Of a stretch of DNA of 64,000 bases, positions 2,547 to 23,427 are shown in pieces. How positions within the stretch are numbered: the first letter of the stretch is position 1; each line of letters opens with the position of its first letter. The DNA is from Pseudomonadota bacterium (lineage in GTDB: Bacteria; Pseudomonadota; Alphaproteobacteria; Sphingomonadales; Sphingomonadaceae), in the NCBI GenBank assembly GCA_046733235.1, contig JBKPOT010000030.1, forward strand, positions 1,825-65,824. Direction: 5' to 3'. The position numbers and the translations under genes were made by a program. The notes below the pieces were generated by a model. That model was not told where the DNA came from. It made no database searches and worked only from the letters and a program-made list of their open reading frames with translations.

Positions 2547-2547
2547 C

Positions 2548-2567: not shown

Positions 2568-2577
2568 TAAGGATGCA

Positions 2578-4653: not shown

Positions 4654-6536
4654 GCCGCGAACAGCTTCAACAGCCAGGCGGCGAAGCCGTCGGCGCGGGG
4701 GCGCCGGGGAGCGCTCGCCGGGGGCGGGCACTCGAGACAGCGGACCTGGATCGAGGACCCGCCGAGCATCCTTTCGGCGTCGGTCAATGCCCGGATCAGG
4801 GTCAGCTGCGGCCCGGTGCCGATCCGGCCGAACGCGTCGCGGGCATTGGCCTGGCTGTCCTCCTCGTCATTGCCGTCGGTGGCGAGCGCCATCAGCAGAT
4901 TGTCGGCGAATCCCGGCTTCTTCTCGAGCCAGGCGACCTCGACGTCGTCGGGGTCGAGTTTCGCCCGCCGGGCCGCCTCGGCGATCGCGTCGTCGAGCCC
5001 GCCGAACGCGTCGACCAGGCCCAGCTGCCGCGCCGTGCCGCCGTCCCAGATCCGCCCCTGGGCGATCTGATCGACCCTGGCGACGGGCAGCTTGCGCGAC
5101 TGCGAGACCAGGCCGAGGAATCGCCGATAGACGCTTTCGACGCCCATTTGCAGAAGCTTCCCGGCCTCGGGCGACGGGCCGCGCAACAGGTCGGGCTCGC
5201 CGGAGAGCGGGGTGGTCTTGACGCCGTCGGCGCCGAGGCCGAGCTTGGTCATCGACCCCTGGAAGCTCGGGAGGATCCCGAACACGCCGATCGACCCGGT
5301 GATCGTGCTCGGCTCGGCATAGATCTTGTCGCCGACCGTCGACACCCAATAGCCGCCGCTCGCCGCGACATTGCCCATCGAGACGACGACCGGCAGCCCC
5401 TTCGCCTTGGCGTCGAGAATTGCATGGCGGATCCGTTCCGAGGCCAAAGCCGATCCGCCGCCCGAATCGACCCGAAGCACCAGGGCCTTGAGATTGCCGC
5501 GCTTCAGCCCCGTCTCGAGCTGCCGGACGATCGTCTCTCCGCCGGCGGTTCCGGCGGGCGCCTTGCCGTCGACGATGTCGCCGGCGACGGTCAGAACCCC
5601 GATCGCTCCATCGTCGTCGCTGGCCGGATAGGCGGCGACCCAGCGGTCGAGCTTGATCGCCCGGAACCCTTCGGGGACGTCAGAGTCGATCGTCCCGGCG
5701 ATCTCGGCGACCCGCCGGCCGAAGGCGTTGCGGTCGCCGATCCGGTCGACCAGGCCGAGCGACAAAGCGCCCTTCGCCATGTCGCCGCCGGCCGCGGCCA
5801 TGCGCGCTCCCGGATCGGCGACATAGGCCGCGATCTGCGCCTTGGGCCGGGCGCGCTTGACGTCCTGCTGCCAGCTCTCCCAGAGCTGGTCGGCGACCAC
5901 CTGGAGCGCTTCCTTCGCCTCGGGGGACATGTCGCTGCGGGTGAACGGCTCGACCGCCGCCTTGTAGGTTCCGACCCGATAGACGTTGGCGGTGATCCCG
6001 AGCTTGTCCATCAGGCCCTTGTAATAAAGGTTCGTCCCGCCCGGCCCGGAGACCAGGACCGCGCCCATCGGGTCGAGCCAGACCTCGCTGGAATGGGCGG
6101 CGAGCTGGTAGGAATCGTCGTCATAGCCGGTGGCGAAGGCGAGCACCTTCTTGTTTGCCTTGCGGACATTGTCGAGCGCTTCGCCGACGTCGGCCAAGGC
6201 GGTCTGGCCGCCCCCCGAGAAGATGTCGAGATCGAGCGCGACGACCTTGATCCGGTCGTCATCGGCCGCTTTCTCCAGAGCATGGATCACGTCGCGAAGC
6301 CGATATTCGCGGGTCCTGCCGCCGCCGCCAAACACGTCCGCCGCGGTCGCCTGGGTCGGCTGCTCGACGATCGGACCGGCGAGGTCGAGCAACAAAGCGC
6401 CATGCTCGCCCGGCCCGACGGTCGGCCGTGCCGACAGGGCCGCGAACAGCATCCCGAAGAAGCCGAGCATGAAGAGCAGGACCATGAAGTCCTTCACCCC
6501 GACGAGAAGTTTCCAGACCTTGCCCGCGAACCGCAT
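4650..6536 (-). CDS. sppA: Signal peptide peptidase SppA, 67K type
   Basis: Two S49 domains; LRVDSGGGSALASE, SMGNVAASGGYWV, ITGSIGVF, QIAQGRIWDG. Confidence 0.95.
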   Translation of the reverse strand: MRFAGKVWKLLVGVKDFMVLLFMLGFFGMLFAALSARPTVGPGEHGALLLDLAGPIVEQPTQATAADVFGGGGRTREYRLRDVIHALEKAADDDRIKVVALDLDIFSGGGQTALADVGEALDNVRKANKKVLAFATGYDDDSYQLAAHSSEVWLDPMGAVLVSGPGGTNLYYKGLMDKLGITANVYRVGTYKAAVEPFTRSDMSPEAKEALQVVADQLWESWQQDVKRARPKAQIAAYVADPGARMAAAGGDMAKGALSLGLVDRIGDRNAFGRRVAEIAGTIDSDVPEGFRAIKLDRWVAAYPASDDDGAIGVLTVAGDIVDGKAPAGTAGGETIVRQLETGLKRGNLKALVLRVDSGGGSALASERIRHAILDAKAKGLPVVVSMGNVAASGGYWVSTVGDKIYAEPSTITGSIGVFGILPSFQGSMTKLGLGADGVKTTPLSGEPDLLRGPSPEAGKLLQMGVESVYRRFLGLVSQSRKLPVARVDQIAQGRIWDGGTARQLGLVDAFGGLDDAIAEAARRAKLDPDDVEVAWLEKKPGFADNLLMALATDGNDEEDSQANARDAFGRIGTGPQLTLIRALTDAERMLGGSSIQVRCLECPPPASAPRRPRADGFAAWLLKLFAA

Positions 6537-6646
6537 GATTTCGACCTTCCGAATGACCTTTGAGTCTGAGCTAGACCAGCCCCGTCTTTGTGTAAATCGG
6601 CGGCTTCCATGGCGGCGCGGGAGGCGAAAGATTCCCTCGCCGACGG

Positions 6647-6674
6647 CTTGACCGCGGATGAACAGCTCTTACAT
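6647..6674 (+). promoter_or_regulatory. Sigma32 (RpoH)-type promoter of groESL
   Basis: CTTG-N17-CTTACAT, matches alphaproteobacterial RpoH consensus. Confidence 0.75.
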
Positions 6675-6682
6675 CCGCCGTG

Positions 6683-6709
6683 CTGGCACTCGCTCGATGC
6701 GAGTGCCAA
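6683..6709. promoter_or_regulatory. CIRCE element (HrcA operator)
   Basis: CTGGCACTC-N9-GAGTGCCAA directly downstream of the promoter. Confidence 0.93.
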
Positions 6710-6763
6710 CAAAGTTCAATCCATGCGGCCCGGGGCCGCATTCAAACCAAAGAGGTGACTCGC

Positions 6764-7051
6764 ATGAACTTTCGTCCGCTCCACGATCGGGTGCTGGTCC
6801 GCCGCGTCGAGGCCGAAGAGACCACGGCCGGCGGGATCATCATCCCCGACACCGCCAAGGAAAAGCCGCAGGAAGGCGAGGTCGTCTCGGTCGGCACCGG
6901 GACTCGCGCCGAGGACGGCACCGTGACGCCGCTCGACGTCAAGGCCGGCGACAAGATCCTGTTCGGCAAATGGTCCGGCACCGAGGTCAAGATCGACGGC
7001 GAGGACCTTCTGATCATGAAGGAAAGCGACATCCTCGGGATCGTCGGCTGA
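6764..7051 (+). CDS. groES: Co-chaperonin GroES
   Basis: [14 protein letters not shown]...[21 protein letters not shown]. Confidence 0.99.
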
Positions 7052-7058
7052 ACTCTCC

Positions 7059-7123
7059 GTCATGCCAGCGCAGGCTGGCATCCATTCGGACTCAACATGG
7101 ACCCCAGCCTTCGCTGGGGTGAC
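7059..7123. repeat. CGTC/REP-like palindromic repeat, family I
   Basis: GTCATGCCAGCGCAGGCTGGCATCCA...TGGACCCCAGCCTTCGCTGGGGTGAC; nearly the reverse complement of 56452-56522. Confidence 0.85.
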
Positions 7124-7130
7124 TAAGTAA

Positions 7131-8789
<1,659 letters not shown>

Positions 8790-8813
8790 GTCCCAGGCTC
8801 AGCCGAAAAAGAG

Positions 8814-8845
8814 AAGGGCCGGGGTCAAACCCCGGCCCTTTTTTT
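8814..8845 (+). terminator. Rho-independent terminator of groESL
   Basis: AAGGGCCGGGG-TCAAA-CCCCGGCCCTT followed by a T run. Confidence 0.92.
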
Positions 8846-8955
8846 GAGGTCGGCCATGTCGATCGTTACGGCGGGACCGTCATCGACCGGATTGCGAACA
8901 TCCCTTATATGTCGGGTCAGCTCACCCGGCGTGGGAACAAGGATGATGAGACGCT

Positions 8956-10590
8956 GTGACCCGATTCGAGCCGCTGGTTGTTCCGAGCGAAGAGCCTAGC
9001 TCGATGGCATCGCGATTTGCCGAAAGGGCGCCAGACCGGCCTCGGCCACGCACCGGATTGCTGGCGGCCGCTCTGTGCTGTCTCCTTTGCGGGTCGGCGG
9101 CCTATGCGGTGCCTGCCGTCTTCGTCAGCGAAATCACCGGAAAACAGCTCCGGGAATCTCGAAAACAGGCAAAAGCGGATGCCGCACTTTGCCGCGACGT
9201 GACGCGACATCGCGCCCGGTTGCACAGCTTCCTCGAGACGAAGAATGTCGAACCGTTCAAGCTTGGAAGGATTGGCGAGCGCTTCTGGTACGGTAATGGC
9301 TGCCCCGAGGACCGGTCCCTCGCGATCGCGATCATGACTTACGTCGTCGGTCCGGATCCGCTGAACAGCGAGAATAGAGAGGCCATAGGGCAGTTGGTCA
9401 CCTATCTTTCGATGAGCGGTCAGGCCGATGACAGAGTGCGCTCGATCGAGCTGCAGCGCATAATGTCGCTTCGCGGCGATTATTATGGGGCTTTTCCGAA
9501 GGTCCAGTGGACTTCGGAGGAGCTGCGCGCCTTCGTGATCCGAGACGATGTCTGGGCCTATCTCAACCGGCCCGGCGCCAGGACGAGCTGGCAAGCGAAA
9601 CTTGCCTTTTTCGACGCGCTCAGCGACCCGAGCTCGCCCCGCTTCGATCGCGATCGAAGCATCGCCATGGGCGAAAGCGTCAACGCCACGCCGGAACAGA
9701 AGACGCGCGCGGCCCGGCTGTTGCTTTCGGGTGCGGAACGCCCCGGCGACATGGATCGCGCGGAAGCCCTGCTGACCAGCGCGGCACGGTATAGCGAGGA
9801 GTCGCGACTGCTCCTCCTCGAGATGGTACGGCCACGATTGCTCAGCAGCGACCGCAACGTCCGGGACCGCACGGTCGCGACCCTGTCCGAATGGTCGGAC
9901 GCGCAGACGCCGGCCGGGGCGGCGGCGCGATCGGCAATGACAACCGTGATCGCTCGCGACCTGTCCTGGGGTGTCGCGGACCTGGAGGCCAGGACCGCGA
10001 AGCTCTTGGCGGATTTTGTCATTCTCGGCACTCGGGATGCCGAAGCACCGCTTTTCGCCTGGGTCGACAGCGCCCTTCAAACAGGCGGAAACGCCCGGAA
10101 AGGTGCTGCCCTGGAAGTGGTCAGGCGGCTTGCTCTCGCACGGCATCCCTTCGCGAGGCATATCCTGAACGCCGAGTTCGACAGGCATGGCGGTCTGGCC
10201 CAAGCGGGCCGATTTTCACCTGAGCAGGGCAATCTGGCTCAAATATTCACCGCTGAGGACTATCCGGCCGCTGCCCTTCGAGCAGAGGAGCAGGGCGTGG
10301 TCGAGGCATCGGCGCTGATCGCTCCGGATGGCAGGATCATCGCCGTGATCGTAACCCGATCGGCCAGTCCGGCGCTCGATAAAGCGGTCTCGAGGCTGAT
10401 CCCGAGCCGGGCGCGCGGAATGACGCCGCCAGGCTATTCGGGGCGATATGTTCAGGCGCCGCTGCCGCCAATCCAGTTTCGCCTCAAGCAGTGCGAGCGG
10501 GATGCGCCTGCCGATCCGATTCTGCCCGGGGCGCTGCTGGTTCAGTCGGATTTTTGTCCTCCCCGGCCCGTGCTTCAGACTGTTTCCTGA
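8956..10590 (+). CDS. Secreted/periplasmic protein with C-terminal TonB_C domain (alternative start 9004)
   Basis: YPAAALRAEEQGVVEASALIAPDGRI...SASPALDKA TonB-C signature; signal-like LLAAALCCLLCGSAAYA; helical middle region. Confidence 0.75.
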   Translation: MTRFEPLVVPSEEPSSMASRFAERAPDRPRPRTGLLAAALCCLLCGSAAYAVPAVFVSEITGKQLRESRKQAKADAALCRDVTRHRARLHSFLETKNVEPFKLGRIGERFWYGNGCPEDRSLAIAIMTYVVGPDPLNSENREAIGQLVTYLSMSGQADDRVRSIELQRIMSLRGDYYGAFPKVQWTSEELRAFVIRDDVWAYLNRPGARTSWQAKLAFFDALSDPSSPRFDRDRSIAMGESVNATPEQKTRAARLLLSGAERPGDMDRAEALLTSAARYSEESRLLLLEMVRPRLLSSDRNVRDRTVATLSEWSDAQTPAGAAARSAMTTVIARDLSWGVADLEARTAKLLADFVILGTRDAEAPLFAWVDSALQTGGNARKGAALEVVRRLALARHPFARHILNAEFDRHGGLAQAGRFSPEQGNLAQIFTAEDYPAAALRAEEQGVVEASALIAPDGRIIAVIVTRSASPALDKAVSRLIPSRARGMTPPGYSGRYVQAPLPPIQFRLKQCERDAPADPILPGALLVQSDFCPPRPVLQTVS

Positions 10591-10721
10591 CCCTCGCTTA
10601 TTCCGCGGGCCGCAAGACCGGGCTCGGACCCGGCGAAATCCACGTCCTCCGCCGCCCGGCCGTCATCGCCATTGACACGGTCGCCGATCCGAACAGAGTC
10701 CGATCCCGGGAAGGAAGCGCG

Positions 10722-12419
10722 ATGATCCGGACATTCCAGATACTTGTCCAGGCCATCGCAATCGCTCTCTTTTCTCTGGCGATGGCGGGTCCGGCTCGAG
10801 CCTGCTCGATGGACATCGAATCTGTCCGGCCAAGCAATTACGAGCTGGTCCAGATGGCCGATGCGATCGTCGTCGCGACGGCTGTCCGGCATTCGGGCGG
10901 CAATGGCCGGACATTCCCCGCCTTTCGGATCGAATCGACGCTGAAGGGTTCGCCGCCCGCCACGGTCGAGGCGCCCTACGCCTCCTTGCAAGTGACAAGG
11001 CCAAGCGATCCGAATGCGCCTTATCCGGTCGCCGCGATGGGCTCGTGCGGCGACAGGCCCTACGACGAGGGTAAGCGCTATCTGCTGCTCCTTACCAGGC
11101 TCGAGGGCGGCGGCTGGAAACCGCTCGACTACGGTTTTGCGGAGGCCGGGGAGGAATATGCCGGCGAGGCGAGCCCGTGGACCCGCACCGTTCGCCGCTA
11201 CATACAGCTTCAGAACCGCTTCAGGGCCATGGCTCAGCTGGAGAAGCTGAAGCAGATGCTGAAGACGCGCGAAGGGCTCGCCGGCGAGACACTCTCCGAA
11301 GCCGAGCTCGGCGATATTCGCGAGCATCTGCAGTCGCTGTCGCCCTACAAGCCGACGCTTTATCTGCTGGCCGCCTGGAACCGTCTGGAACGCGGCGAGC
11401 AGCCGGATTTCGGTATCGGGCCGGCCGCCGCCGGAACGAACGAAGAAGCGGCAGGGCCGGCAGGCGGGGTAAGCAGCAAGCCGGTCCACGTGTCCGACAT
11501 GTCGAGGCAGCGCCGAAACCTTCTCCTCGCGCTCGTCAACGGCGATCATCCCGACGCGCTGCCGCTGTTCAACAGGCTGGCCGCCTCGCCGTCGACGGTT
11601 CCGGGCGAGCTCGGGCCGGCGCTGCGCTTCTTCGCGAAGAACGGCCAATATCCACGCGCATATCAGTGGATCGAGACCAGGTTGATGAACCTGTTGCCGA
11701 CCTTGCCGGAGCGGGAGGCGAAGACGCTCATCGAGGATGTGGACGAGGTGCAGGATGGCGATTCATCGGATGAAGGGCACGAACGCTGGCGGCGCGACCG
11801 GCATGCGGCAGCAAACTGGCCGGAACTGGCCCTCGCGCTCCACTGGTACCAGGTCCGTTTCTTCGGCGAGGACAGCATCTCCAGCACCAGCGAAGCGATC
11901 GGCGCGATCCGGGTCCCGGATTATCGCGCCCGTCCCTTCGTCACGCTCGCATTGGCGGCCGACTTCGACGCGAACGTGTCCAGATGGGCGATGGCGGAGC
12001 TGAAAGACCAGGCCAAGAGGCGGGCGTGGGAGGCTCGCCCCGTCGATCCCGACTGGCCGCCGCCGGCCGAGGACGATCCGGCCTGGCTGCCGCTGATGGC
12101 CCTGCTCACGGCCTGGACGGCGGAAAAGGAGCAGTTTCTGGCCGACATCTTCTGCCAGAGCGAGAGTCGCCGCCATCTCCTGATCTCGATGCTCGGCACC
12201 GAGGCCGAAATCAATTATTCGGACGTCCTCGAGCGGATCGCCGCCACCCCGACACTGACGCAGGCGGAGCGCGGCCTGCTGGCTGAGGCGATCGTCCGTT
12301 TCGTCGGGCGTCGGGACGGGAGAATGGATATCTCACTCGAAGACGGACCGACGCGGATCCTCGAGCGATTGCGCATAGACGCCGACGCCAGGCCGGCCGC
12401 GATCGTCTGTTCTCACTGA
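10722..12419 (+). CDS. Secreted hypothetical protein, TIMP/NTR-like N-terminal domain plus helical C-terminal region
   Basis: RBS AAGGAAG; signal peptide ending ARA-C; CSM...ADAIVVA...FRIESTLKG...SCG...YLLLL pattern. Confidence 0.75.
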   Translation: MIRTFQILVQAIAIALFSLAMAGPARACSMDIESVRPSNYELVQMADAIVVATAVRHSGGNGRTFPAFRIESTLKGSPPATVEAPYASLQVTRPSDPNAPYPVAAMGSCGDRPYDEGKRYLLLLTRLEGGGWKPLDYGFAEAGEEYAGEASPWTRTVRRYIQLQNRFRAMAQLEKLKQMLKTREGLAGETLSEAELGDIREHLQSLSPYKPTLYLLAAWNRLERGEQPDFGIGPAAAGTNEEAAGPAGGVSSKPVHVSDMSRQRRNLLLALVNGDHPDALPLFNRLAASPSTVPGELGPALRFFAKNGQYPRAYQWIETRLMNLLPTLPEREAKTLIEDVDEVQDGDSSDEGHERWRRDRHAAANWPELALALHWYQVRFFGEDSISSTSEAIGAIRVPDYRARPFVTLALAADFDANVSRWAMAELKDQAKRRAWEARPVDPDWPPPAEDDPAWLPLMALLTAWTAEKEQFLADIFCQSESRRHLLISMLGTEAEINYSDVLERIAATPTLTQAERGLLAEAIVRFVGRRDGRMDISLEDGPTRILERLRIDADARPAAIVCSH

Positions 12420-12456
12420 TCGCCGCCGCCCACCGGCGCTCGGTCCGGCCGACTCG

Positions 12457-12720
12457 CTATTGGGCATTCCCCGCCGAATTCGCCGATCCTTCACCGGCCG
12501 GCGCGGGCTCCTCGGTCTCGACGACGTCGACCTCGCCATTGCCGAGCGGGGCGTCCTCGTTGGCGGCCATGCTGTCGGGCGAGGCGTCGAGCATCTCCGC
12601 CGCATTGTCGAGCTGGCGATTCTCTTCCTCGGTGGGCGTGGTCGAATTGTCGTCGCGGTTGCATCCGGCCAGGAACGTCAGGCTCGCAACAAGTGCGGCG
12701 GCCGCAATCATCTTTCGCAT
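12457..12720 (-). CDS. Small acidic lipoprotein
   Basis: MRKMIAAAALVASLTFLAGC lipobox; Asn/Asp/Glu/Ala-rich disordered body. Confidence 0.85.
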   Translation of the reverse strand: MRKMIAAAALVASLTFLAGCNRDDNSTTPTEEENRQLDNAAEMLDASPDSMAANEDAPLGNGEVDVVETEEPAPAGEGSANSAGNAQ

Positions 12721-12770
12721 GCTGGCGTCTCCCGATGCATCCCCTGGCATCAGTCTAGCCAGGCGCCTGA

Positions 12771-12812
12771 AAATAAAAAGGGCCGCGTGCCATTGAGGCA
12801 CGCGACCCTTTT
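12771..12812 (-). terminator. Rho-independent terminator downstream of the 13109-12834 lipoprotein gene
   Basis: AAAAGGG-C-CGCGTGCC-ATTGA-GGCACGCG-A-CCCTTTT with A/T tails on both sides. Confidence 0.8.
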
Positions 12813-12833
12813 CAAATCGATCGCGAGACGAGC

Positions 12834-13109
12834 TTACTTGCCGTCGGTCGCATTCGAGATGGTGTTGCCGGCCGCATCGGCGGCGTTCTCGATGGTGTTG
12901 CCGGCGTCGGAGGCAATGTTGCCGGCGTCGCTGGCAAGGTTGCCGTCGAGCGAGCTGTTGGCGGCGTCGGTCGCGTTGTCGACGTCGACGGCGGCGCCGT
13001 TCTCGGTCAGGTTGAGGTCGGTGCTGTTGTTGGTCTCGGTGCCGGCATTGTTGCAGGCGGCGAGGCCGAGGGTCGCGACGGCGACCAGGGCGATGGCAAT
13101 CTTCTTCAT
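12834..13109 (-). CDS. Small Asn/Ala/Asp-rich repeat lipoprotein
   Basis: MKKIAIALVAVATLGLAAC lipobox; GN(L/I)ASDA and GNTI(E/S)NA repeats; GGAGGG RBS. Confidence 0.88.
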   Translation of the reverse strand: MKKIAIALVAVATLGLAACNNAGTETNNSTDLNLTENGAAVDVDNATDAANSSLDGNLASDAGNIASDAGNTIENAADAAGNTISNATDGK

Positions 13110-13262
13110 GGGCTTTCCCTCCTGAGACAGGATGATTGTGGTGCGCCGGGCGAGGCGCAGGGAGTCTCCTCCCGGCTTCCGGCGAGCACAGATGTAAACG
13201 AGCTCCGGCCCTATGTCTACTGTTTCAGTAAAGAATTGGCGCGGGCATTGCGCGTCCGTGAC

Positions 13263-13291
13263 TTGACCGACATATAAAGATATCTTTATAT
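13263..13291 (+). promoter_or_regulatory. Sigma70-like promoter with a perfect 20-bp palindromic operator (SahR/SamR-type)
   Basis: TTGACC at 13263-13268; ATATAAAGAT-ATCTTTATAT at 13272-13291 covers spacer and -10. Confidence 0.8.
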
Positions 13292-13299
13292 CCTTATCT

Positions 13300-14262
13300 A
13301 TGTCCGGCGCTTCAGAAATCTTCCGTTCGCTCGGCGATTCGACCCGGCTTCGGATCATCGCTCTTCTGCGCGCGATGGAGCTTTCGGTCGGCGAGCTCGC
13401 CCAGGTGCTCGGCCAGAGCCAGCCGCGCGTGTCGCGCCATGTCCGGATCCTGATCGACGCCGGCCTCGCCGAGCGGCGCAAGGAGGGCAGCTGGGTGTTC
13501 CTCAGCCTCGCCGACGCGGCCCGGGTCGGACCTTTGTTCGACCTGCTCGACCGCTGGGCGGAGCTGGACGGCGACGATCCCTGGATGGTCGCGGACTCGG
13601 CCCGGCTCGCCGCGGTCCGCGCCGACCGCGCCGCCGCCGCCGAAGCCTATTTCGCCTCGCACGCCAAGGATTGGGACGAGCTTCGCTCGCTCCATATCGC
13701 CGAGAGCGAAGTCGAGGCGGCGATCGCCCGAGCTCTCGACTCCGAGGGCCGTCCGGTCGGCCGGCTGGTCGATATCGGTACCGGCACCGGCCGGATGATC
13801 AGCCTGTTCGGCCCCGACGCCTCGCACGCCCTCGGCGTAGACCGCTCGCCCGAAATGCTTCGCCTCGCCCGGGTCAAGCTGGCCGAGGCGGGTCTTGCCT
13901 CGGCCGAGCTTCGCCAGGGCGACATGTATGCGCTGCCTTTGGCCTCGGGCTCGGCGGACACGGTGATCCTTCACCAGGTTCTCCATTACGCCCAGCAGCC
14001 CGCGGCCGCGGTCGCCGAGGCCGCGCGTCTGCTCGCGCCCGGCGGGCGTCTGCTGGTCGTCGATTTCGCGCCGCACGACCGCGAGGAGTTGCGAAGCCGC
14101 GACGCCCATGCCCGCCTTGGCTTCGCCGACGACGTGATGCTCAAATATCTGGAGGGCGCCGGGCTCGAGGCGCGAGTCGTCGAGCATCTCGAGGGCGGCG
14201 AGCTGACCGTGACGATCTGGGCCGGCGAGCGCGGCGAATCGCGCCTGAAGGTGGTGGCATGA
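13300..14262 (+). CDS. ArsR-HTH plus SAM-methyltransferase fusion regulator (SahR/SamR-like)
   Basis: FRSLGDSTRLRII...SQPRVSRHVRIL...RKEGSW; LVDIGTGTG; VILHQVLHY; heads the metF-metH operon. Confidence 0.92.
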   Translation: MSGASEIFRSLGDSTRLRIIALLRAMELSVGELAQVLGQSQPRVSRHVRILIDAGLAERRKEGSWVFLSLADAARVGPLFDLLDRWAELDGDDPWMVADSARLAAVRADRAAAAEAYFASHAKDWDELRSLHIAESEVEAAIARALDSEGRPVGRLVDIGTGTGRMISLFGPDASHALGVDRSPEMLRLARVKLAEAGLASAELRQGDMYALPLASGSADTVILHQVLHYAQQPAAAVAEAARLLAPGGRLLVVDFAPHDREELRSRDAHARLGFADDVMLKYLEGAGLEARVVEHLEGGELTVTIWAGERGESRLKVVA

Positions 14263-15194
14263 GCCCGGTCGCCCACCCCGCCGGCCAGTGGAGCCATCCT
14301 TTGTTCGAGGACGCGGCGGGCGACATCGCGGTCTCGTTCGAATTCTTCCCGCCGCGCACCGAGAAGATGGAAGAGACTCTCTGGGAGTCGGTCGAGACCC
14401 TCGCTCCGCTCGCACCGCGCTTCGTCTCGGTCACCTATGGCGCCGGCGGCTCGACCCGCGAGCGGACCCACAATACGGTCGTCCGGATCGCCAGCGAGAC
14501 CGATCTCGAGGCCGCCGCTCATCTCACCTGTGTCGAGGCGAGCCGCTCCGAGATAGACGAAGTCGCTCGCGCCTACTGGCAGGCCGGAATCCGCCATGTC
14601 GTCGCTCTTCGCGGCGACCCGCCGGTCGAGGGCAAGAGGTTCGAGCCGCGTGCCGACGGCTATGCCAATGCCGCCGAGCTGGTCGCGGGCCTGCGCAAGG
14701 TCGCCCCGTTCGAGATTTCCGTCGCGGCCTATCCCGAGGTCCATCCCGAGGCCGGCACCCAGCAGGCCGATCTCGACAATCTGAAGCGCAAGCTCGACGC
14801 CGGCGCGGTCCGGGCGATCACCCAATTCTTCTTCACTCCGGACTGCTTCTTCCGGTTCCGCGATGCGGCCGCCGCCGCCGGAATCGACGCCGAGCTGGTC
14901 CCGGGGATCCTCCCCGTCTCGAACGTCGCCCAGACCCGCAAATTCGCCTCGCTGTGCGGCGCCTCGATCCCGCCCTGGATGGATCGGCTGTTCGAGGGGC
15001 TCGACAATCTCCCGGCCGCCCGCCAGCTCGTCGCGGCCACCGTCGCCGCCGAATTGTGCGGCCAGCTCTATGCCGGCGGAGTCCGCCAGTTCCATTTCTA
15101 CACGTTGAACCGGGCCGAGCTCGCTTATGCGATCTGCCATTTGCTCGGGCTCCGGCCGAAGGACCAGACAGATGAACGCCGCACAGCAGCTTAG
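14259..15194 (+). CDS. metF: 5,10-methylenetetrahydrofolate reductase
   Basis: VSFEFFPP, SVTYGAGGS, AAHLTCV, ALRGDPP, AAYPEVHP, AITQFFF, FHFYTLNR. Confidence 0.98.
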   Translation: MSPVAHPAGQWSHPLFEDAAGDIAVSFEFFPPRTEKMEETLWESVETLAPLAPRFVSVTYGAGGSTRERTHNTVVRIASETDLEAAAHLTCVEASRSEIDEVARAYWQAGIRHVVALRGDPPVEGKRFEPRADGYANAAELVAGLRKVAPFEISVAAYPEVHPEAGTQQADLDNLKRKLDAGAVRAITQFFFTPDCFFRFRDAAAAAGIDAELVPGILPVSNVAQTRKFASLCGASIPPWMDRLFEGLDNLPAARQLVAATVAAELCGQLYAGGVRQFHFYTLNRAELAYAICHLLGLRPKDQTDERRTAA

Positions 15195-16206
15195 GGCAGA
15201 GGCCGCCACGCGGATCCTGATCAAGGACGGCGCCTACGGCACCCAGGTCCAGGCGCGCCGCCTCAACGAGGCCGATTATCGCGGCGGGCTCGCGCTCGAG
15301 CGCGACCAGAAGGGCAATAACGATCTTCTCAACCTGACCCGGCCCGACCTGGTCAGCGAGATCGCTTTGGCCTTCACCGACGCCGGCGCCGACATCCTCG
15401 CCACCAACACGTTCAACGCCAATGCGATCAGCCAGGCCGATTATGGCGCCGAGCATCTCGTCCGCGACATGAACCGGGCATCGGCCGGGATCGTCCGCGA
15501 GGTCGCCGACGCCGCGACCGCGAAGGACGGCCGCCGCCGATTCGTCGCCGGAGCGCTTGGTCCGACCAACAAGACATTGTCACTGTCGCCCAACGTCAAC
15601 GATCCGGGCTTTCGCGAGATCGACTTCGATACTCTGTCCGACGTCTATGTCGAGCAGATCGAGGCTCTGGTCGAAGGCGGCGCCGAGTTCGTCCTGATCG
15701 AGACGGTGTTCGACACTCTGAACGCCAAGGCCGCGATCCATGCCTCGCGCCGGGTCGATCCGGATCTTCCGATCATGCTGTCGATGACGGTGACCGACCT
15801 TTCCGGCCGCAACCTCTCCGGCCATTCGATCGAGGCCTTCTGGGCGTCGGTGCGCCACGCCCGGCCGCTCTCGGTCGGGCTCAATTGCTCGTTCGGAGCG
15901 GCCCAGCTCAGGCCCCATATCGCCGCTCTGTCCGCGGTCGCCGACACTCTGATCATGGCCTATCCCAATGCCGGCCTGCCCAACGATCTCGGCGAGTATG
16001 ACGAATGCCCGGAGACCACTTCGGCGCAGGTGCGCGAATGGGCTGACAGCGGCACGGTCAACATCGTCGGCGGCTGTTGCGGAACCACTCCGGCCCATAT
16101 CCAGGCGATCGCCGGGTCGGTTGCCGGAGTGCCGCCGCGCAGGCTTCCCGAGCCGCCGCGCTGGACGCGCCTCGCCGGCATCGAGCCGATGGTGATCGCC
16201 GCATGA
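15172..16206 (+). CDS. metH: Methionine synthase N-terminal half (homocysteine S-methyltransferase domain)
   Basis: [47 protein letters not shown] Zn ligands. Confidence 0.96.
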
Positions 16207-16484
16207 AGCGCAGGAGTCGGTCATTGACGAGCGACCAGGCCGGATTGTTGATGTGCATTGGCGGAATTTTCGGACCGCTCGCGATTGTCCTGGCGGCCGG
16301 CGGGATCGGCTACGCTCTGGGTTGCCCCGTCAATGAGGGCGGCTCGGCCTGCATGGCTCTGGGTGTGGACATCGGACCGCTGCTCGCTGCCATGTTTTCG
16401 TTTTTCTGGCTGATGTTCCTCATTCCCGTCTGCATGGTCGGGGCCGCAATTTTCACCGTCAAGATCGCCCTCGGGCGCAGATAG
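16203..16484 (+). CDS. Small two-TM membrane protein with a C-x8-C loop
   Basis: ATGA overlap with metH-N stop; hydrophobic helices flank [19 protein letters not shown]; ends 11 nt before metH-C. Confidence 0.75.
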
Positions 16485-16495
16485 ATCTTTCCCAC

Positions 16496-19099
16496 ATGAC
16501 CACACTCCCCAAGGGCACCTTCGTCAATATCGGCGAGCGCACCAACGTCACCGGCTCGGCCAGGTTCAAGAAGCTGGTCATGGCCGGCGACTATGCCGCC
16601 GCGGTCGAGGTCGCCCGCGACCAGGTCGAGAACGGCGCCCAGGTCATCGACATCAACATGGACGAGGGCCTGCTCGACGCCGAATATGCGATGACCACCT
16701 TCCTGAAGCTGATCGCGGCCGAGCCCGACATCGCCCGGGTCCCGTTCATGATCGACAGCTCGAAATGGACGGTGATCGAGGCCGGCCTCAAATGCGTGTC
16801 GGGCAAGCCGATCGTCAATTCGATCAGCATGAAGGAGGGCGAGGAGGAGTTCATCGCCCACGCCCGCAAGGTCCGCGATTATGGCGCGGCGGTGGTGGTG
16901 ATGGCATTCGACGAGACCGGCCAGGCCGACACCAAGGAGCGCAAGGTCGAGATTTGCGAGCGCGCCTACAAGCTGCTCGTCGAGGACGGATTCCCGCCCG
17001 AGGACATCATCTTCGATCCGAACATCTTCGCGGTCGCGACCGGGATCGAGGAGCATCGCCGCTACGCCCTCGACTTCATCGAGGCCTGCCGCGAGATCAA
17101 GGCGCGCTGCCCGCACGTCCACATCTCGGGCGGCCTGTCCAACCTCTCTTTCTCGTTCCGCGGCAACGAACCGGTCCGCCGGGCGATGCACGCCGTCTTC
17201 CTCTATCACGCGATTCCCGCCGGGCTCGACATGGCGATCGTCAATGCCGGCCAGCTCGATGTCTACGACGTGATCGATCCCGAGCTCCGCGAGGCGTGCG
17301 AGGACGTCGTGCTCGATCGCCGGGATGACGCCACCGAGCGGCTGGTCGACCTCGCCGAGCGCTATCGCGGCTCCGACCCGGTCCAGGAGAAGATCGCCGC
17401 CGAATGGCGCGGCTGGCCGGTCGAGAAGAGGCTCGAGCACGCTCTGGTCAAGGGCATCGACGCCTTCGTCGTCGACGATGCCGAGGAGGCGCGGCAGAGC
17501 GCCGAGCGGCCGATCCACGTCATCGAAGGGCCGCTTATGGACGGCATGAACGTCGTCGGCGACCTGTTCGGATCGGGCAAGATGTTCCTTCCCCAGGTGG
17601 TCAAGTCGGCGCGGGTGATGAAGAAGGCGGTCGCCCACCTCATCCCCTATATCGAGGCCGAGAAGGAGAAATCGGGCGCGACCCAGGGCAAGGGCCGGAT
17701 CGTGATGGCGACGGTCAAGGGCGACGTCCACGATATCGGCAAGAACATCGTCGGGGTGGTCTTGCAGTGCAACGGCTTCGAGGTGATCGATCTCGGCGTG
17801 ATGGTGCCCTGGCAGGACATCCTCCAGGCCGCCAACGAGAATGAGGCCGACATGATCGGCCTCTCCGGCCTGATCACCCCCTCGCTCGACGAGATGGTGA
17901 CGGTCGCGGGCGAGATGCAGCGCGCCAGCCTGTCGCTTCCGCTTCTGATCGGCGGGGCGACGACGTCGAAGGTCCACACGGCGCTTCGCATCGATCCGGC
18001 CTATGAAGGGCCGGTCATCCACGTTCTCGACGCGAGCCGCGCGGTCGGGGTCGCCTCGTCTCTGGTCTCGGACACGCAATGCGATCCGCTCGTCGCCCAG
18101 ACCCGGCAGGATTATGAGCAGATCCGCGACACCCGCGCCAACAAGGGCCAGAACGAGCTCGCGACGCTCGACGAGGCCCGCGCCAACGGCTTCGCCTATG
18201 ACGAGACCGGCAAGGCGCCGCCGCCCAAGCGGCCGGGACTCCACAGCTTCGGCGAATGGCCGCTTCGCGATCTGAGGGACGGAATCGACTGGACCCCCTT
18301 CTTCCGCGCCTGGGAGCTGGCCGGCAATTATCCTGCGATCCTCGAGGACGAAGTGGTCGGCGAAAGCGCCCGCTCATTGTTCGCCGACGCCCAGGCGATG
18401 CTCGATCGGATCATCGCCGAGCATTGGCTCGCCGCGCGCGGGACGGTCGGCCTGTGGCGCTGCCGCCGAGAGGGCGACGACGTCTTCGTCCTCGCCGGCA
18501 ATGACGAGACTCTCCTGCCCTTCCTCCGCCAGCAGGTGAAGAAGAGGGAAGGGCGGGCCAATATGTGCCTCGCCGACTTCATCGCGCCCGAGGGCGAGGA
18601 TTGGATCGGCGGATTCGCGGTCGCGATCCACGGCCTCGAGCCCCACCTCGCCCGGTTCAAGGCCGAGAATGACGATTATTCCGACATCCTCCTCAAGGCG
18701 CTCGCCGACCGGCTCGCCGAAGCCTTCGCCGAGCGGCTCCATCAGCATGTCCGCGAAAGCGTCTGGGGCTATGAGCCCGAGGAATATCAGACCAACCAGG
18801 ACCTGATCCGCGAGCGCTACGAGGGAATCAGGCCGGCGCCAGGCTATCCCGCCTGCCCCGATCACAGCCTCAAGCCGGTGCTGTTCCAGATGTTGGGAGG
18901 CGACCCCGCCGGGATCACGCTCAGCGACAATTATGCGATGCTTCCGGCCTCGGCGGTGTCGGGCTTCTATTTCGGCCACCGCGACAGCCAGTATTTTGGG
19001 GTCGCCCGGATCGGCCGTGACCAGCTCGAAGACTATGCCGCCCGCCGCGGGGTCTCGCTTCAGGAGGCCGAGCGCTGGCTGAGGCCGAACCTGGACTAG
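16496..19099 (+). CDS. metH: B12-dependent methionine synthase C-terminal half (pterin-binding, cap, cobalamin-binding and activation domains)
   Basis: [44 protein letters not shown]. Confidence 0.98.
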
Positions 19100-19322: not shown

Positions 19323-19391
19323 CTAGAACCTGTTGTTGCCGCATTGCTCTTTGCGAAAAGCCGGTACCCACCTTTTCGCGCAATGCTCTAG
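19323..19391. repeat. CTAG-flanked palindromic repeat, family IV
   Basis: CTAG...GCATTG..GCGAAAAG-CCGGTACCCAC-CTTTTCGC-GCAATGC-T-CTAG; supplies the stop codon of the neighbouring gene. Confidence 0.65.
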
Positions 19392-20011
19392 GTGGGCGGG
19401 CCGGCCTGCCGGGCGCCCTCCCAAAGCATGGCGGCGAGCCACTCGTCCACCACCGCGTCGATGACGAGATGGACCCGGTCCGTATCGCCGCGGTTGGCGA
19501 CCGAGTGGGGATCGAGCAGCCGCACATACCAAATGCTTCCCGCTTCCATCCGGACCGGGCGGCGATTGACCATGAACTCGACTTCGGAATTGGTGGCGAC
19601 CACGACATGGAGGCGGGCAATGCCTTCGTCGGCGTCGAGACCGGGATCGCAATGCTCCTTGATCTGCGATCCCGGCGACAGCCGCATCAGTCGCGCCGCC
19701 TTGAGTGGGCAGGGGAAGCAGCCGAGCACCTCGCGCAGATAGGGGGCCCGGTCGAGCAAATGCGTGTCCTCGAAACGGCTCGCTCCGAGGTCGGCATTGA
19801 TCAGCCGCAGCGGATGGGTTTCGCCGGCGGCGGAGCGAAGCGGCAGGACCGTCCAGTCGCCTTCATAATTGGCCCTGACGACGTGGCGTACCCATTCGGC
19901 CTCGTCGAACCGGCCGAGATCCTCTGCGAGCCGCTCCGGATCGAAGCTCAGGCCCAGCCGCACCCGGTCCGGGAGGCGCGATCCCGCCGCCTCGCCTTCA
20001 GCGATCCGCAT
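19388..20011 (-). CDS. Aspartyl/asparaginyl beta-hydroxylase-family Fe(II)/2-oxoglutarate dioxygenase
   Basis: RLMRLSPGSQIKEHCD (HxD), RLHVVVATN, HSVANRGDTDRVHLVID (distal His and 2OG Arg). Confidence 0.9.
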   Translation of the reverse strand: MRIAEGEAAGSRLPDRVRLGLSFDPERLAEDLGRFDEAEWVRHVVRANYEGDWTVLPLRSAAGETHPLRLINADLGASRFEDTHLLDRAPYLREVLGCFPCPLKAARLMRLSPGSQIKEHCDPGLDADEGIARLHVVVATNSEVEFMVNRRPVRMEAGSIWYVRLLDPHSVANRGDTDRVHLVIDAVVDEWLAAMLWEGARQAGPPT

Positions 20012-20133
20012 CCCCGCAATGTCTTGCGCTCCGTCCACCAAGATGATGCTATGCGGCGCGGGCCGGATTGGAAAGGTGCCTGGCTCGCACGCAACCGGCG
20101 GGGCGCTTCGAGGTGGGAAGGACGAAGGCTGCC

Positions 20134-21321
20134 ATGAACGACAGCGCCTCCGCCCCGCTCGACCGGTTCCGGAACCATGTCATGGCCGACGAAGCGCTGC
20201 AGATTCGGCTGGCGCGCTGCGAGAGCCCGGAGGCGTTCGTCGCCTTGGCGCTAGACGAGGCGGCAAGAGCGGGGATCGCGCTTTCGGCCGATTCTTTCGG
20301 AGAGCTCAGGCCCGATCCGATCGGCATGTTCCTGGGCGCGCCCGCTCCGATTCACGGCGCCTCCTGGCCCGGGCCCGACTGGCGCCCGATCCAGTTGGTG
20401 TCGCTGCCCGAGGGAGGGATCGCGGTGGACTGGGTCCATTTCGCCGGCGCCGCGCTCGACAAGCCGTTCTTCGCAACCAACGCCAGAAACGCCGCGGAGC
20501 GGCCGTTCAATCTCGCCTTCCGCTATCGCGTCGGGCTCGACGATTTCATCGAGGGAGCCGCCGCCGCCCCGCCGCCGCCCGACGGCTTCATCTTCCATAT
20601 GTCGCGATGCGGCTCCACTTTGGTCTCGCAGATGCTCGCCGCTTTGCCCGATATCGTCGCCGTCTCGGAGCCGCCGCCGCTCGATATCATGGTTCGGCTG
20701 GCCGCCGATGCCGACGAGGCCGGCGACGAGCGCGGCCTGCGCGCATTCAAGGCCATGGTTCACGCGCTGGGCCGCGATCGTCCGGGCGGCGGGCGCCGCT
20801 TCGTCTTCAAGCTCGACAGCTGGCAGACCATCATGCTGCCCTTCTTCCGCAGGGCCTTTCCGGCGGTGCCCTGGGTCTTCATCTACCGCGACCCCGTCGA
20901 AGTCCTGGTCTCGCTGATTCTGACTCCAAGCATCCAGGTCATGGCCAACGTGCCGCATCATCACCGCATCGAGACCGAGGCGGGAGCCTCGCCTGAAGAG
21001 TATATCGCTCAAGTCCTGGAGCGGGTTTGCACCATGGCCGCGGATTGCGCGGAGTCAGGCGGGCTGCTGGTCAGCCACGAAGAGCTGCCCGGAGCGATCG
21101 GGAAGATCCTCGCTCACCTGAAAATCCACGCGGGCGAGGGCGGATCGGCGGCCATGGCGGAGGCGGCACGCCGCGACGCCAAGTCGCCCTGGCGGGACTA
21201 TCAGGCGGATTCCAAGGCCAAGAGGAGCGGCGCCTCCCCGGCCGTGCGCGCCGCGGCGGAGCGTCACCTGGCGGAACCCTATCGCCGCCTAGAGGCGCTT
21301 CGGCGGGCCCGGAATCGATGA
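20134..21321 (+). CDS. Sulfotransferase-fold protein with a Nif11-like N-terminal domain
   Basis: FIFHMSRCGSTLVSQML (5'-PSB), FIYRDPVEVLVS (3'-PB); N-terminus LDRFRNHVMADEALQIRLA...AFVALA...AGIALS. Confidence 0.85.
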   Translation: MNDSASAPLDRFRNHVMADEALQIRLARCESPEAFVALALDEAARAGIALSADSFGELRPDPIGMFLGAPAPIHGASWPGPDWRPIQLVSLPEGGIAVDWVHFAGAALDKPFFATNARNAAERPFNLAFRYRVGLDDFIEGAAAAPPPPDGFIFHMSRCGSTLVSQMLAALPDIVAVSEPPPLDIMVRLAADADEAGDERGLRAFKAMVHALGRDRPGGGRRFVFKLDSWQTIMLPFFRRAFPAVPWVFIYRDPVEVLVSLILTPSIQVMANVPHHHRIETEAGASPEEYIAQVLERVCTMAADCAESGGLLVSHEELPGAIGKILAHLKIHAGEGGSAAMAEAARRDAKSPWRDYQADSKAKRSGASPAVRAAAERHLAEPYRRLEALRRARNR

Positions 21322-21357: not shown

Positions 21358-23427
21358 GTGAATCGTCTCAGCCGCCTCCTGCTCGCCCTCGCCGGGGCGC
21401 TGATCGCCGTACAGGCCGCGTCCCAGATCCTGCCGCCCGGACAAAAAGCAATGGCGGTCAGCCTGGTTGCCGAAGGCGACGCTCCGCCGGCGGGCGGCAA
21501 GGTCACTCTGGCGCTGCTGATGAAGCCGCGCCCCGGCTGGCATGGCTATTGGGAGAATCCGGGCGACGCCGGTGTCCCGAACCGAATCGAATGGCGTCTT
21601 CCCGCCGGCCTGAGCGCCGGGCCGATCCAATATCCGGTGCCGAAGCGGCTGATCGTCGCCGGCTTCATGAATTACGTCTTCGAAGGCGAGCATGCCGAGC
21701 TGATCGACCTCGAGGTGCCGGCCGGCCTCGCTCCCGGCTCGACCCTGCCGCTTCGCGCGACCCTGAATTACCTGGTCTGCACCGACCAGGTCTGCGTCCC
21801 CGAGAAAGCCGAGCTTGCGCTGGATCTCAAGGTCGCGGCGGGCCGGGTGGACGCGGCGCGCCGGGCCGAGTTCGACCTTTACCGTCAGGCCTTGCCTCGA
21901 CCGCTCGGCAGCGAGGCGCGCTTCGAGCGGGCAGGCGGCAAGCTGCGTCTCGCCATTCCCATCCCGGCGGCGATGAAGCTCGACGATCCCTATGTCTTCC
22001 CGCTCACCCTCGAAGCAGTGAACCATAGCGGACCGCAAAGGCTGTCCCGAAGCGGCGACCTGCTGATCGTCGAGACCGAAGCGGGCCGGGCACGTCCGTC
22101 TTCGCTCGACGGCGTGCTCGCGGTCGGCGGCGGCGCCGGGCTGGCCTTCCACGCCGGAGCGGGGCCGGTTCCGCCGCCCGGAGTCGCGATCGCCGGCACG
22201 GCCGGGGGCGATGATGGCGAGGGCGCGGCGAGCAATGGCGGGAGCGGCGGAGCCATGGCCGTGCTTCTGGCGCTCGGCGGAGCGATATTGGGCGGCCTGT
22301 TGCTCAACATCATGCCCTGCGTCTTCCCGATCCTCAGCCTCAAGGCGCTGAGCCTCGCGAAAGCGGGCGGGGACGAGCGGGCGGCGCGGCGAGAGGCGCT
22401 CGCTTACACGCTGGGCCTCGTCTTCGTCTGCCTCGCACTGGGCGCGACGATGCTCGCGCTCCGCTCCGGCGGCGACGCGGTCGGCTGGGCGTTCCAGCTC
22501 CAGGATCCGCGGATCATCCTGGTCCTGCTTCTGCTGGTGACCGCGATCGCGCTCAACCTGGCGGGCCTGTTCGAGCTTCCCGCGCTCGGCCTCGGCGACC
22601 GGCTGACCCGAAGCGGCGGGACCGCCGGCGCCTTCTGGACCGGCGCTCTCGCGGCCTTCGTCGCGACCCCATGCACCGGGCCGTTCATGGGCGCGGCGAT
22701 GGGCGCGGCTTTGCTTCTGCCGGGCGTCTTTGCTCTCGCCATCTTCGCCGGGCTCGGCCTCGGCCTCGCAATCCCCTTCCTTCTGCTCGGCTTCGTGCCC
22801 GCCTTGCGCCGGCGCCTTCCCAAGCCGGGACCGTGGATGGGCCGGTTCCGGCGGATATTGTCGGTGCCGATGTTCCTGACCGCATTTGGCCTCGCCTGGG
22901 TGCTGGGACGCCAGACGGGAACGGACGGGCTGGCCATCGGCCTCGCGGCCGCCCTGACTGCGGGGCTGGCCTTGTGGTGGGTCGGAAGGAGGGGTGGTTG
23001 GTATCGCCTCGCTCCCGCGGCGCTCGCGGCGGCCATTGCCATCGCTCTCTTGCCCTCGGCAGTGGAGCCCGCCTCCGCGAGGCGAAGCGGGCTTCCGGGC
23101 GAGGAACCGTTCAGCGAGCAAAGGCTTGCCGCTCTGCGCTCGGAGGGCCGTCCGGTCTTCGTCTATTTCACCGCCGACTGGTGCCTCACCTGCAAGGTCA
23201 ACGAGGCCGGAGTGCTCGAGCGGGGCGAGGTAGAGCGCGCCTTCAAGGAAAAGAACGTCGCGGTGCTGGTCGGCGACTGGACCAGAGGCGACGCGGCGAT
23301 CGGCCGATTCCTCGAAAAGGAGGGCCGGTCGGGGATCCCGCTCTATCTCTATTATCCGCCGGGCGGACGGTCCGAGACGCTGCCGCAGATCTTGACGGTC
23401 AGTCGGTTGACCAGGCTGGCGCGCTAG
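21358..23427 (+). CDS. dsbD: Thiol:disulfide interchange protein, DsbD/ScsB family
   Basis: GWHGYWENPGDAG, CTDQVC, MPCVFP, ATPCTGP, thioredoxin WCLTCK. Confidence 0.92.
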   Translation: MNRLSRLLLALAGALIAVQAASQILPPGQKAMAVSLVAEGDAPPAGGKVTLALLMKPRPGWHGYWENPGDAGVPNRIEWRLPAGLSAGPIQYPVPKRLIVAGFMNYVFEGEHAELIDLEVPAGLAPGSTLPLRATLNYLVCTDQVCVPEKAELALDLKVAAGRVDAARRAEFDLYRQALPRPLGSEARFERAGGKLRLAIPIPAAMKLDDPYVFPLTLEAVNHSGPQRLSRSGDLLIVETEAGRARPSSLDGVLAVGGGAGLAFHAGAGPVPPPGVAIAGTAGGDDGEGAASNGGSGGAMAVLLALGGAILGGLLLNIMPCVFPILSLKALSLAKAGGDERAARREALAYTLGLVFVCLALGATMLALRSGGDAVGWAFQLQDPRIILVLLLLVTAIALNLAGLFELPALGLGDRLTRSGGTAGAFWTGALAAFVATPCTGPFMGAAMGAALLLPGVFALAIFAGLGLGLAIPFLLLGFVPALRRRLPKPGPWMGRFRRILSVPMFLTAFGLAWVLGRQTGTDGLAIGLAAALTAGLALWWVGRRGGWYRLAPAALAAAIAIALLPSAVEPASARRSGLPGEEPFSEQRLAALRSEGRPVFVYFTADWCLTCKVNEAGVLERGEVERAFKEKNVAVLVGDWTRGDAAIGRFLEKEGRSGIPLYLYYPPGGRSETLPQILTVSRLTRLAR

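Follow-up and report, generated by a model that had tools for sequence, protein, structure and literature searches.

What a hydroxylase and a sulfotransferase encoded back to back in a sphingomonad genome might act upon, and why the second of them should begin with a domain known from peptide leaders, are the questions raised by positions 19388 to 21321 of a 64,000-nucleotide stretch of DNA (contig JBKPOT010000030.1 of assembly GCA_046733235.1, from a member of the Sphingomonadaceae), which is referred to below in its entirety as the window. The original prediction for this locus described an intact hydroxylase dependent on Fe(II) and 2-oxoglutarate (2OG) and a sulfotransferase carrying the motif for 3'-phosphoadenosine 5'-phosphosulfate (PAPS), transcribed divergently from a 122-bp spacer; that description was corroborated by the open reading frames (ORFs), by hidden Markov models (HMMs) and by the invariance of the corresponding motifs. 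The analysis presented here demonstrates that the two enzymes work together as a functionally coupled pair, and on balance it favours the view that the pair supplies the enzymes of a protein-tailoring system whose parts are dispersed in the genome; the likeliest substrates would be three leaderless tail-collar proteins whose genes lie on a different contig (C23). The features of the locus are as follows (aa, amino acids; pLDDT, predicted local distance difference test; pTM, predicted template modelling score):

19388..20011, minus strand: hydroxylase gene (207 aa; soluble 2OG/Fe(II) hydroxylase, Pfam Asp_Arg_Hydrox clade)
19475-19477, minus strand: 2OG-binding residue R179
19505-19507, minus strand: Fe ligand H169
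19646-19654, minus strand: Fe ligands H120 and D122 (HxD motif)
20012..20133, no strand: divergent intergenic spacer (122 bp)
20134..21321, plus strand: sulfotransferase gene (395 aa, in three parts; AlphaFold model pLDDT 90.5, pTM 0.90)
20155..20298, plus strand: Nif11-fold helical module (sulfotransferase residues 8-55)
20299..20580, plus strand: linker and beta-hairpin sub-domain (residues 56-149), conserved and part of the sulfotransferase unit
20581..21318, plus strand: PAPS-sulfotransferase core of the P-loop type (residues 150-395; 5' loop H155-L163, E179, K226, 3'-phosphate motif R252...S260)

The minus-strand ORF spans 19388-20041 with a likely ATG start at 20011, the plus-strand ORF spans 20068-21321 with a likely ATG start at 20134, and the catalytic motifs of both encoded enzymes are intact. 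Both promoters presumably lie within the 122-bp spacer; a consensus scan of that spacer returned neither a sigma-70-like site nor a terminator.

Coupling and distribution of the two genes

Examination of 35 related loci, taken from species genomes of several phyla and with the gene calls for their neighbourhoods filtered by third-codon-position GC content (GC3), demonstrated that the hydroxylase gene adjoins that of the sulfotransferase in 25 of them (divergently in 20, on the same strand or fused in four, and downstream in one). Some of these arrangements join the two activities physically: an acidobacterial locus (L034) encodes hydroxylase, Nif11 module and sulfotransferase in succession within a single ORF, and in two further loci (L028 and L031) a hydroxylase-Nif11 ORF overlaps the ORF of a sulfotransferase that itself lacks the module. 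The same three parts are encoded as three genes, in that order and with 4-nt overlaps, in L107, and they appear in the order Nif11, sulfotransferase, hydroxylase in L109. In the one downstream case (L033:7233-7833), it is the hydroxylase gene that a frameshift splits, probably representing a pseudogene or an assembly error.

The co-occurrence of the two genes was assessed among 201 genomes of the same family. Six of these encode the sulfotransferase and four the hydroxylase, each time beside a sulfotransferase, and the hydroxylase is found in none of the 195 sulfotransferase-negative genomes (Fisher 2e-7, a value drawn from related genomes that are not independent). A class-wide sample of 301 genomes contained one full-length ortholog, which is too sparse for an analysis of co-occurrence. 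Adjacency, fusions and co-occurrence thus establish the functional coupling of the two genes, a linkage that had been anticipated when the locus was first described. Both genomes of the same genus are without the pair, which is therefore an accessory trait.

The sulfotransferase also occurs without an orthologous hydroxylase, in two genomes that are 99-100% complete (G356 and G422) and in seven metagenome-assembled genomes; in three other genomes, the hydroxylase is encoded on a different contig from the sulfotransferase. Together with a fold resembling that of tyrosylprotein sulfotransferases (TPSTs; see below), these sulfotransferase-only genomes argue that prior hydroxylation by the window hydroxylase is not required for sulfation, so that the sequence of hydroxylation followed by O-sulfation that had been proposed for the pair would not be obligatory. 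The possibility that small Asp_Arg_Hydrox paralogs replace the hydroxylase in G356 and G422 was considered and rejected; these paralogs sit in unrelated clusters with PqqD-like genes. Those surroundings in other sphingomonads (L074, G356:C1:94000-102000; L075, G422:C6:229000-237000) constitute a separate cluster that resembles those for peptides that are synthesized ribosomally and modified post-translationally (RiPPs) and is unrelated to the pair; by eye, the genes there include one for a small protein like PqqD and possibly one for a protein like HPr kinase, near the small Asp_Arg_Hydrox match of the genome scan, and L075 also contains a sulfotransferase-like gene with a PAPS-loop motif (again by eye).

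The two enzymes and the Nif11 module

The hydroxylase passes the cut-off of the Pfam model PF05118 Asp_Arg_Hydrox (52.9 bits against a cut-off of 22.6, E 5e-14), its residues H120, D122, H169 and R179 are invariant across 21 homologs, and its structure model (pLDDT 92.6) displays the double-stranded beta-helix fold. Its nearest solved relative is L-proline cis-4-hydroxylase (4p7w; profile E 8.9e-19, Foldseek 1e-10), followed by proline 3-hydroxylase (a cis-3-hydroxylase, 1e5r; profile E 3.9e-11), with a Foldseek template-modelling (TM) score of 0.68 and an identity of 21-25% to the proline hydroxylases; a nucleoside-antibiotic hydroxylase is also among the best sequence and fold matches. Human AspH ranks below the proline hydroxylases in the Foldseek search, and AspH is absent from the sequence-profile matches. 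Since the proline hydroxylases are nearer than AspH, the term 'Asp/Asn beta-hydroxylase', by which this gene had initially been known, is a family label and carries no assignment of substrate. The domain of approximately 100 residues with which the proline hydroxylases end is missing from the window enzyme, the alignment extending over residues 14-187 of 207 against 16-186 of 292. An N-terminal signal-like stretch is seen neither in the hydroxylase nor in the sulfotransferase when their sequences are read by eye.

The sulfotransferase falls slightly below the cut-off of PF13469 Sulfotransfer_3 (24.4 bits against 27), a model that is matched by all 39 of the aligned members of its family (best E 2e-10). 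That family comprises more than 2,400 matches of approximately 400 aa, chiefly in sphingomonads and other Alphaproteobacteria. Its PAPS 5'-phosphosulfate loop (residues 155-163) is invariant in the family alignment, as are residues R158, S161, T162, E179, K226, R252 and S260, and an APS kinase, the activity required for PAPS synthesis, is encoded in the genome. When the core was compared with known structures using Foldseek, the top 13 matches in the PDB were all tyrosylprotein sulfotransferases (TPST1, TPST2 and a tick TPST; E 4e-6 to 1e-4, with 19-23% identity over approximately 220 columns), and heparan-sulfate 3-O-sulfotransferase and other glycan sulfotransferases ranked beneath them. HMM-based sequence searches of the PDB with the same protein returned nothing useful, and no match to a TPST. 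Preceding the core, the sub-domain contains a beta-hairpin (strands 83-90 and 96-102 in the model) and a series of invariant or nearly invariant residues (P60, D61, P62, W83, P85, W100, and P124 and N126 within a PFN motif), and it is retained in sulfotransferases from which the Nif11 module is missing (L028, L031, L035 and both halves of P0053). The last of these, a 611-aa metagenomic protein, was considered as a possible fusion to a hydroxylase and rejected as such; it consists of the sulfotransferase unit (beta-hairpin sub-domain and core) repeated in tandem, without the module.

The N-terminal module is modelled with high confidence (pLDDT 94-98) as four helices spanning residues 8-17, 20-27, 32-45 and 52-55. 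Its resemblance to Nif11 domains is weak when single sequences are tested against HMMs: the Pfam model PF07862 Nif11 scores 20.8 bits on the whole sulfotransferase, below its cut-off of 23.8, and 24.3 bits on the same stretch scanned within the genome, and it individually matches three of 39 members of the sulfotransferase family. For that reason, a profile-profile comparison was used, in which hhalign set a profile of 37 aligned N-terminal domains against one of 25 genuine alphaproteobacterial Nif11 domains; the two profiles matched over 48 columns with a probability of 94.2% (E 1.1e-7) and a score of 34.6, as compared with a maximum of 14.8 among 60 column-shuffled controls. At the level of sequence profiles, the domain is thus a real but remote member of the Nif11 family, and the likeness that had been suspected from a single sequence is substantiated.

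A search of 1.84 billion representative proteins with the module profile produced 969 matches, including stand-alone proteins of 66-70 aa that pass the Nif11 cut-off at 26.7-29.7 bits, as well as true tandem-Nif11 RiPP precursors. Beyond the sulfotransferase, the module is found either as a stand-alone protein of 68-70 aa or at the C-terminus of a hydroxylase, and the stand-alone 68-aa proteins have at their end no variable core but a short tail of basic and aromatic residues that is conserved. Wherever it is arranged with a sulfotransferase the module immediately precedes it, and it is present also in the sulfotransferases of hydroxylase-negative genomes; it therefore belongs functionally to the sulfotransferase. 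The TIGR03798 model for Nif11 leaders scores 17.5 and 20.1 bits, far below its cut-off of 32.3, the domain continues into an enzyme and not into a core peptide, and a scan of the genome (93.6% complete) found the N-terminus of the sulfotransferase as its only Nif11-like sequence and no Nif11-leader precursor, so that a classical RiPP of the Nif11 type is unlikely. A recent preprint shows that a Nif11 leader (MppE) folds into a tetrahelical bundle, which binds a 2OG hydroxylase via protein-protein contacts (10.64898/2026.10.04.756588). By analogy, the most plausible interpretation of the module of the sulfotransferase is that of a contact domain borne by the enzyme, which would recruit a substrate or a partner. 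The notion of a built-in leader or recognition module survives in part, as an enzyme-side module of the Nif11 family, and not as a cleaved leader.

Tail-collar proteins and other candidate substrates

Within 14 of the 35 loci, the sulfotransferase gene lies no more than 6 kb from two or three tandem genes for phage-tail-Collar proteins of approximately 180 aa, together with genes for a GNAT acetyltransferase, a DUF6916 protein and a homolog of asparagine (Asn) synthase; the best curated match of that homolog is a model of lasso-peptide isopeptide cyclases (4e-111, under the cut-off of the model). Two metagenomic contigs (L099 and L109) carry this same set of genes in tight operons. The association extends to the 201 family genomes, of which five encode DUF6916, including all four that possess the hydroxylase (Fisher 8e-8); those four also all contain a tightly packed trio of collar genes with a GNAT. 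Five of five further sulfotransferase-positive genomes without collar genes nearby carry the trio elsewhere in the genome, whereas the collar genes of sulfotransferase-negative genomes belong to another type: they are mostly present as pairs, mostly encode Sec signal peptides, and have neither a GNAT nor a DUF6916 gene in their vicinity. A Methylobacterium locus (L035:4686-5738) encodes a GNAT-hydroxylase fusion followed by a sulfotransferase without the Nif11 module, an arrangement that ties the acetyltransferase of the cluster to the same pathway. In L109 (positions 1-4939), the collar trio adjoins a gene for an adhesin-like giant of more than 3,183 aa (Big_3_5, CLIPPER and Calx-beta domains), a neighbour that may hint at a role for the system at the cell surface.

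The genome from which the window derives contains its own version of this cluster, at the following position:

C23:12000-25000 (locus L041, coordinates 6560-18655): own-genome collar cluster

It encodes a collar trio, a GNAT, a DUF6916-like protein with a Tat signal and a weak homolog of Asn synthase; a second DUF6916 gene is located on C2. Adjoining the cluster are a gene resembling exosortase-type O-glycosylation ligases (TIGR03097), a gene for a secreted beta-helix protein and a HlyD/ABC type I secretion pair, and upstream of it lies an apparent very large, repeat-rich gene, beyond the resolution of the GC3 gene caller. The proteins of the trio are without a signal peptide, so that cytoplasmic enzymes could reach them before export.

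According to the favoured reading, the hydroxylase, a cytoplasmic 2OG/Fe(II) enzyme of the proline-hydroxylase/AspH clade, would modify a protein substrate, and a cytoplasmic, PAPS-dependent sulfotransferase with a TPST-like fold would act upon that same protein, with the Nif11 helical bundle that it bears serving as a protein-protein contact module. Both reactions would take place in the cytoplasm before export, and the sulfate might be accepted either by an enzymatically made hydroxyl or by a native tyrosine, serine or threonine. The target of the pair is probably a protein, which preserves one half of an earlier suggestion that a peptide or a protein is modified; the peptide half, a classical Nif11-type RiPP, suffers from the missing precursor. 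The collar trio of C23 would be the likeliest substrate, and the neighbouring DUF6916 proteins less likely ones. A literature search turned up no experiments with collar proteins of the stand-alone kind, with COG4675 or with DUF6916. The system is composed of defined and testable parts, namely the two enzymes, the candidate substrates encoded on C23 and a supply of PAPS.

Several observations weigh against the assignment of the collar proteins as substrates. The pair and the collar genes are on different contigs in their own genome, with none of the latter in the window, and the co-occurrence statistics draw upon few independent lineages (three genera). A comparison of trio-type with other collar proteins identified no tyrosine, serine, threonine, proline or asparagine specific to the trio, the contrast being confined to a shifted cysteine and one histidine. 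The genomes G356 and G422 carry the sulfotransferase without a trio-type cluster or DUF6916, and the enzyme may have other or additional substrates. Furthermore, the nearest solved relatives of the hydroxylase use free amino acids.

That kinship is one ground for an alternative in which the enzymes belong to a small-molecule pathway, the hydroxylase acting on proline, pipecolate or a similar free amino acid and the sulfotransferase on a metabolite, with a link to the collar genes that is regulatory or otherwise indirect. The ranking of L-proline cis-4-hydroxylase, proline 3-hydroxylase and the nucleoside-antibiotic hydroxylase as best matches agrees with such a pathway, and the GNAT and amidotransferase partners could make a small amide product. 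The alternative is nevertheless unlikely: the C-terminal domain of the proline hydroxylases is missing, the sulfotransferase more closely resembles those that act on proteins than those that act on small molecules, the enzymes are coupled to the collar trio in tight operons, and the Nif11 module is a fold for protein-protein contacts. A chance that is slimmer still is given to the scheme in which a peptidyl Asp/Asn beta-hydroxylase would create a beta-hydroxyl on a RiPP-type peptide for O-sulfation by its partner, with the Nif11-like domain as a built-in leader. Membership of the hydroxylase in Asp_Arg_Hydrox, the genuine Nif11 homology, the lasso-cyclase-like enzyme among the partners of the cluster and the docking of a 2OG hydroxylase by a Nif11 leader in a RiPP pathway (10.64898/2026.10.04.756588) are all in keeping with that scheme, and the same order of reactions was proposed by Iyer, Abhiman, de Souza and Aravind (2010, NAR 38:5261, PMC2938197). 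It is opposed by the genome scan, which revealed no leader peptide other than the sulfotransferase itself, by the low scores of TIGR03798, by the existence of genomes with the sulfotransferase and no hydroxylase, by the closer kinship of the hydroxylase to proline hydroxylases than to AspH, and by a sulfotransferase fold nearest to that of enzymes which sulfate native tyrosine.

Tailoring of the cell envelope, in which the sulfotransferase would modify an exopolysaccharide or glycolipid and the hydroxylase a lipid (as LpxO or OlsC), would account for the position of Sphingomonas pairs near exopolysaccharide genes of the PEP-CTERM/XrtA type (a TIGR03013 glycosyltransferase, PrsK and PrsR) and near a mannose-1-phosphate guanylyltransferase-like gene (named by eye), and for the exosortase-associated O-glycosylation ligase-like gene that adjoins the collar cluster on C23. 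Those exopolysaccharide neighbours are limited to one lineage, however, the window hydroxylase is small and soluble, glycan sulfotransferases (including heparan-sulfate 3-O-sulfotransferase) rank under the TPSTs by fold, and four separate, canonical and high-scoring Asp_Arg_Hydrox genes (frames of approximately 400-550 aa) are available in the genome for lipid work, all of which renders this role quite improbable. The matches in question (L100-L103) lie at C4:114118-141063, where three are found within 27 kb, and at C13:150357-150845, with scores of 145-163 bits; a further small Asp_Arg_Hydrox paralog is located at C8:186769-187029 (L105). That the two genes are merely unrelated neighbours with independent functions, as their divergent transcription outside of any operon and the occurrence of the sulfotransferase alone might suggest, is scarcely tenable, as natural fusions and overlapping ORFs strongly disfavour it, adjacency is maintained across several phyla, and among the 201 family genomes the hydroxylase is never seen without the sulfotransferase.

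The interpretation of the pair as a protein-tailoring module can also be extended, in a form that is speculative and improbable as a whole. The Nif11 bundle would then be a leader placed on the enzyme instead of the substrate: a portable docking module, either free-standing or borne by the sulfotransferase or the hydroxylase, that would assemble RiPP-type tailoring enzymes (2OG hydroxylase, TPST-like sulfotransferase, GNAT and lasso-cyclase-like ligase) onto folded tail-collar proteins of approximately 180 aa, and the product would be a hydroxylated, sulfated and possibly cross-linked heterotrimeric fibre. Were this to prove true, protein O-sulfation in bacteria would gain a new class, and the recognition seen in RiPPs would be inverted.

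The immediate neighbours of the pair in the window contribute little to its interpretation. They differ at the loci of other genomes, and the methionine/S-adenosylmethionine (SAM) operon beside the pair is therefore incidental, as had been allowed for at the outset; because the pair is separated here from its probable substrates, that operon and the adjoining DsbD gene probably represent local synteny only. The operon region (13300-19099) includes a fusion of an ArsR-type helix-turn-helix domain to a SAM methyltransferase (13300-14262), upstream of a split cobalamin methionine synthase, of which the homocysteine S-methyltransferase domain is encoded at 15127-16206 and the pterin, B12 and activation domains at 16496-19099. 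A DsbD-type thiol:disulfide interchange protein is encoded directly after the sulfotransferase (21358-23427). DsbD also follows the sulfotransferase in loci of Allosphingosinicella-like genomes (L006-L010, L014 and L024), in which a gene for a secreted beta-helix protein precedes it; its position next to the sulfotransferase is probably a matter of local synteny.

Comparison with known systems

The idea that hydroxylation and sulfation are combined is not new, having been predicted by Iyer et al. (PMC2938197), who described conserved gene neighbourhoods in which members of the beta-hydroxylase family are combined with sulfotransferases; in several of these neighbourhoods, genes for PAPS synthetases, for acetyltransferases and for tail-collar or collagen-like proteins are present as well. 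These authors proposed that the tail-collar or collagen-like proteins are hydroxylated and then sulfated (PMC2938197). The enzyme pair and the proposed logic of collar modification are the same here, as probably are its partners (tail-collar proteins, an acetyltransferase and PAPS synthesis), of which the collar and GNAT genes lie on C23 and not in the window. The pair of the window is a new member of a computationally predicted protein-tailoring system, which has a precedent and is explained in outline. For this member, the present analysis establishes the integrity of both genes, their family assignments, the coupling of the enzymes and their co-occurrence with the cluster of collar, GNAT and DUF6916 genes. 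The earlier study was computational only and makes no mention of a Nif11 module (PMC2938197); it assumes that hydroxylation precedes sulfation, whereas the sulfotransferase-only genomes argue that this order is not obligatory, and the pair in the window is apart from the collar genes on C23.

Among enzymes of known structure, human TPST1 and TPST2 (PDB 3ap1, 3ap3 and 5wrj) provide the best match to the sulfotransferase core, which shares with them the PAPS loop, the invariant glutamate and lysine, and the 3'-phosphate motif. The window protein differs from the TPSTs in its additional Nif11 module and beta-hairpin sub-domain, in a probable cytoplasmic location as opposed to one facing the Golgi or periplasm, and in the lack of a sequence match by HMM. 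The bacterial enzyme RaxST, a functional analogue among tyrosylprotein sulfotransferases, is to our knowledge the one well-studied case of protein sulfation in bacteria, a subject that is otherwise almost unexplored.

The hydroxylase shares the HxD...H...R arrangement of the proline hydroxylases (4p7w and 1e5r), but is considerably shorter (207 aa against approximately 290), and its gene context points to proteins and not to free proline. AspH, LpxO and OlsC belong to the same Pfam family and have the same double-stranded beta-helix fold, but the window enzyme lacks a TPR or membrane part. Similarly, the helical module belongs to the same domain family as the Nif11 leaders of RiPP precursors (N11P, TIGR03798; MppE), but is without a core peptide and is instead fused to an enzyme or encoded just before one. 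The features that are new in this system are therefore (i) a Nif11 module that is mobile and borne on the enzyme side; (ii) the affinities of the two enzymes to proline hydroxylases and to TPSTs; and (iii) the ability of the sulfotransferase to stand alone. In particular, a fold that is known as a RiPP leader travels here on the side of the enzyme, where it would form a natural counterpart to those Nif11 leaders that bind their enzymes by means of tertiary structure.

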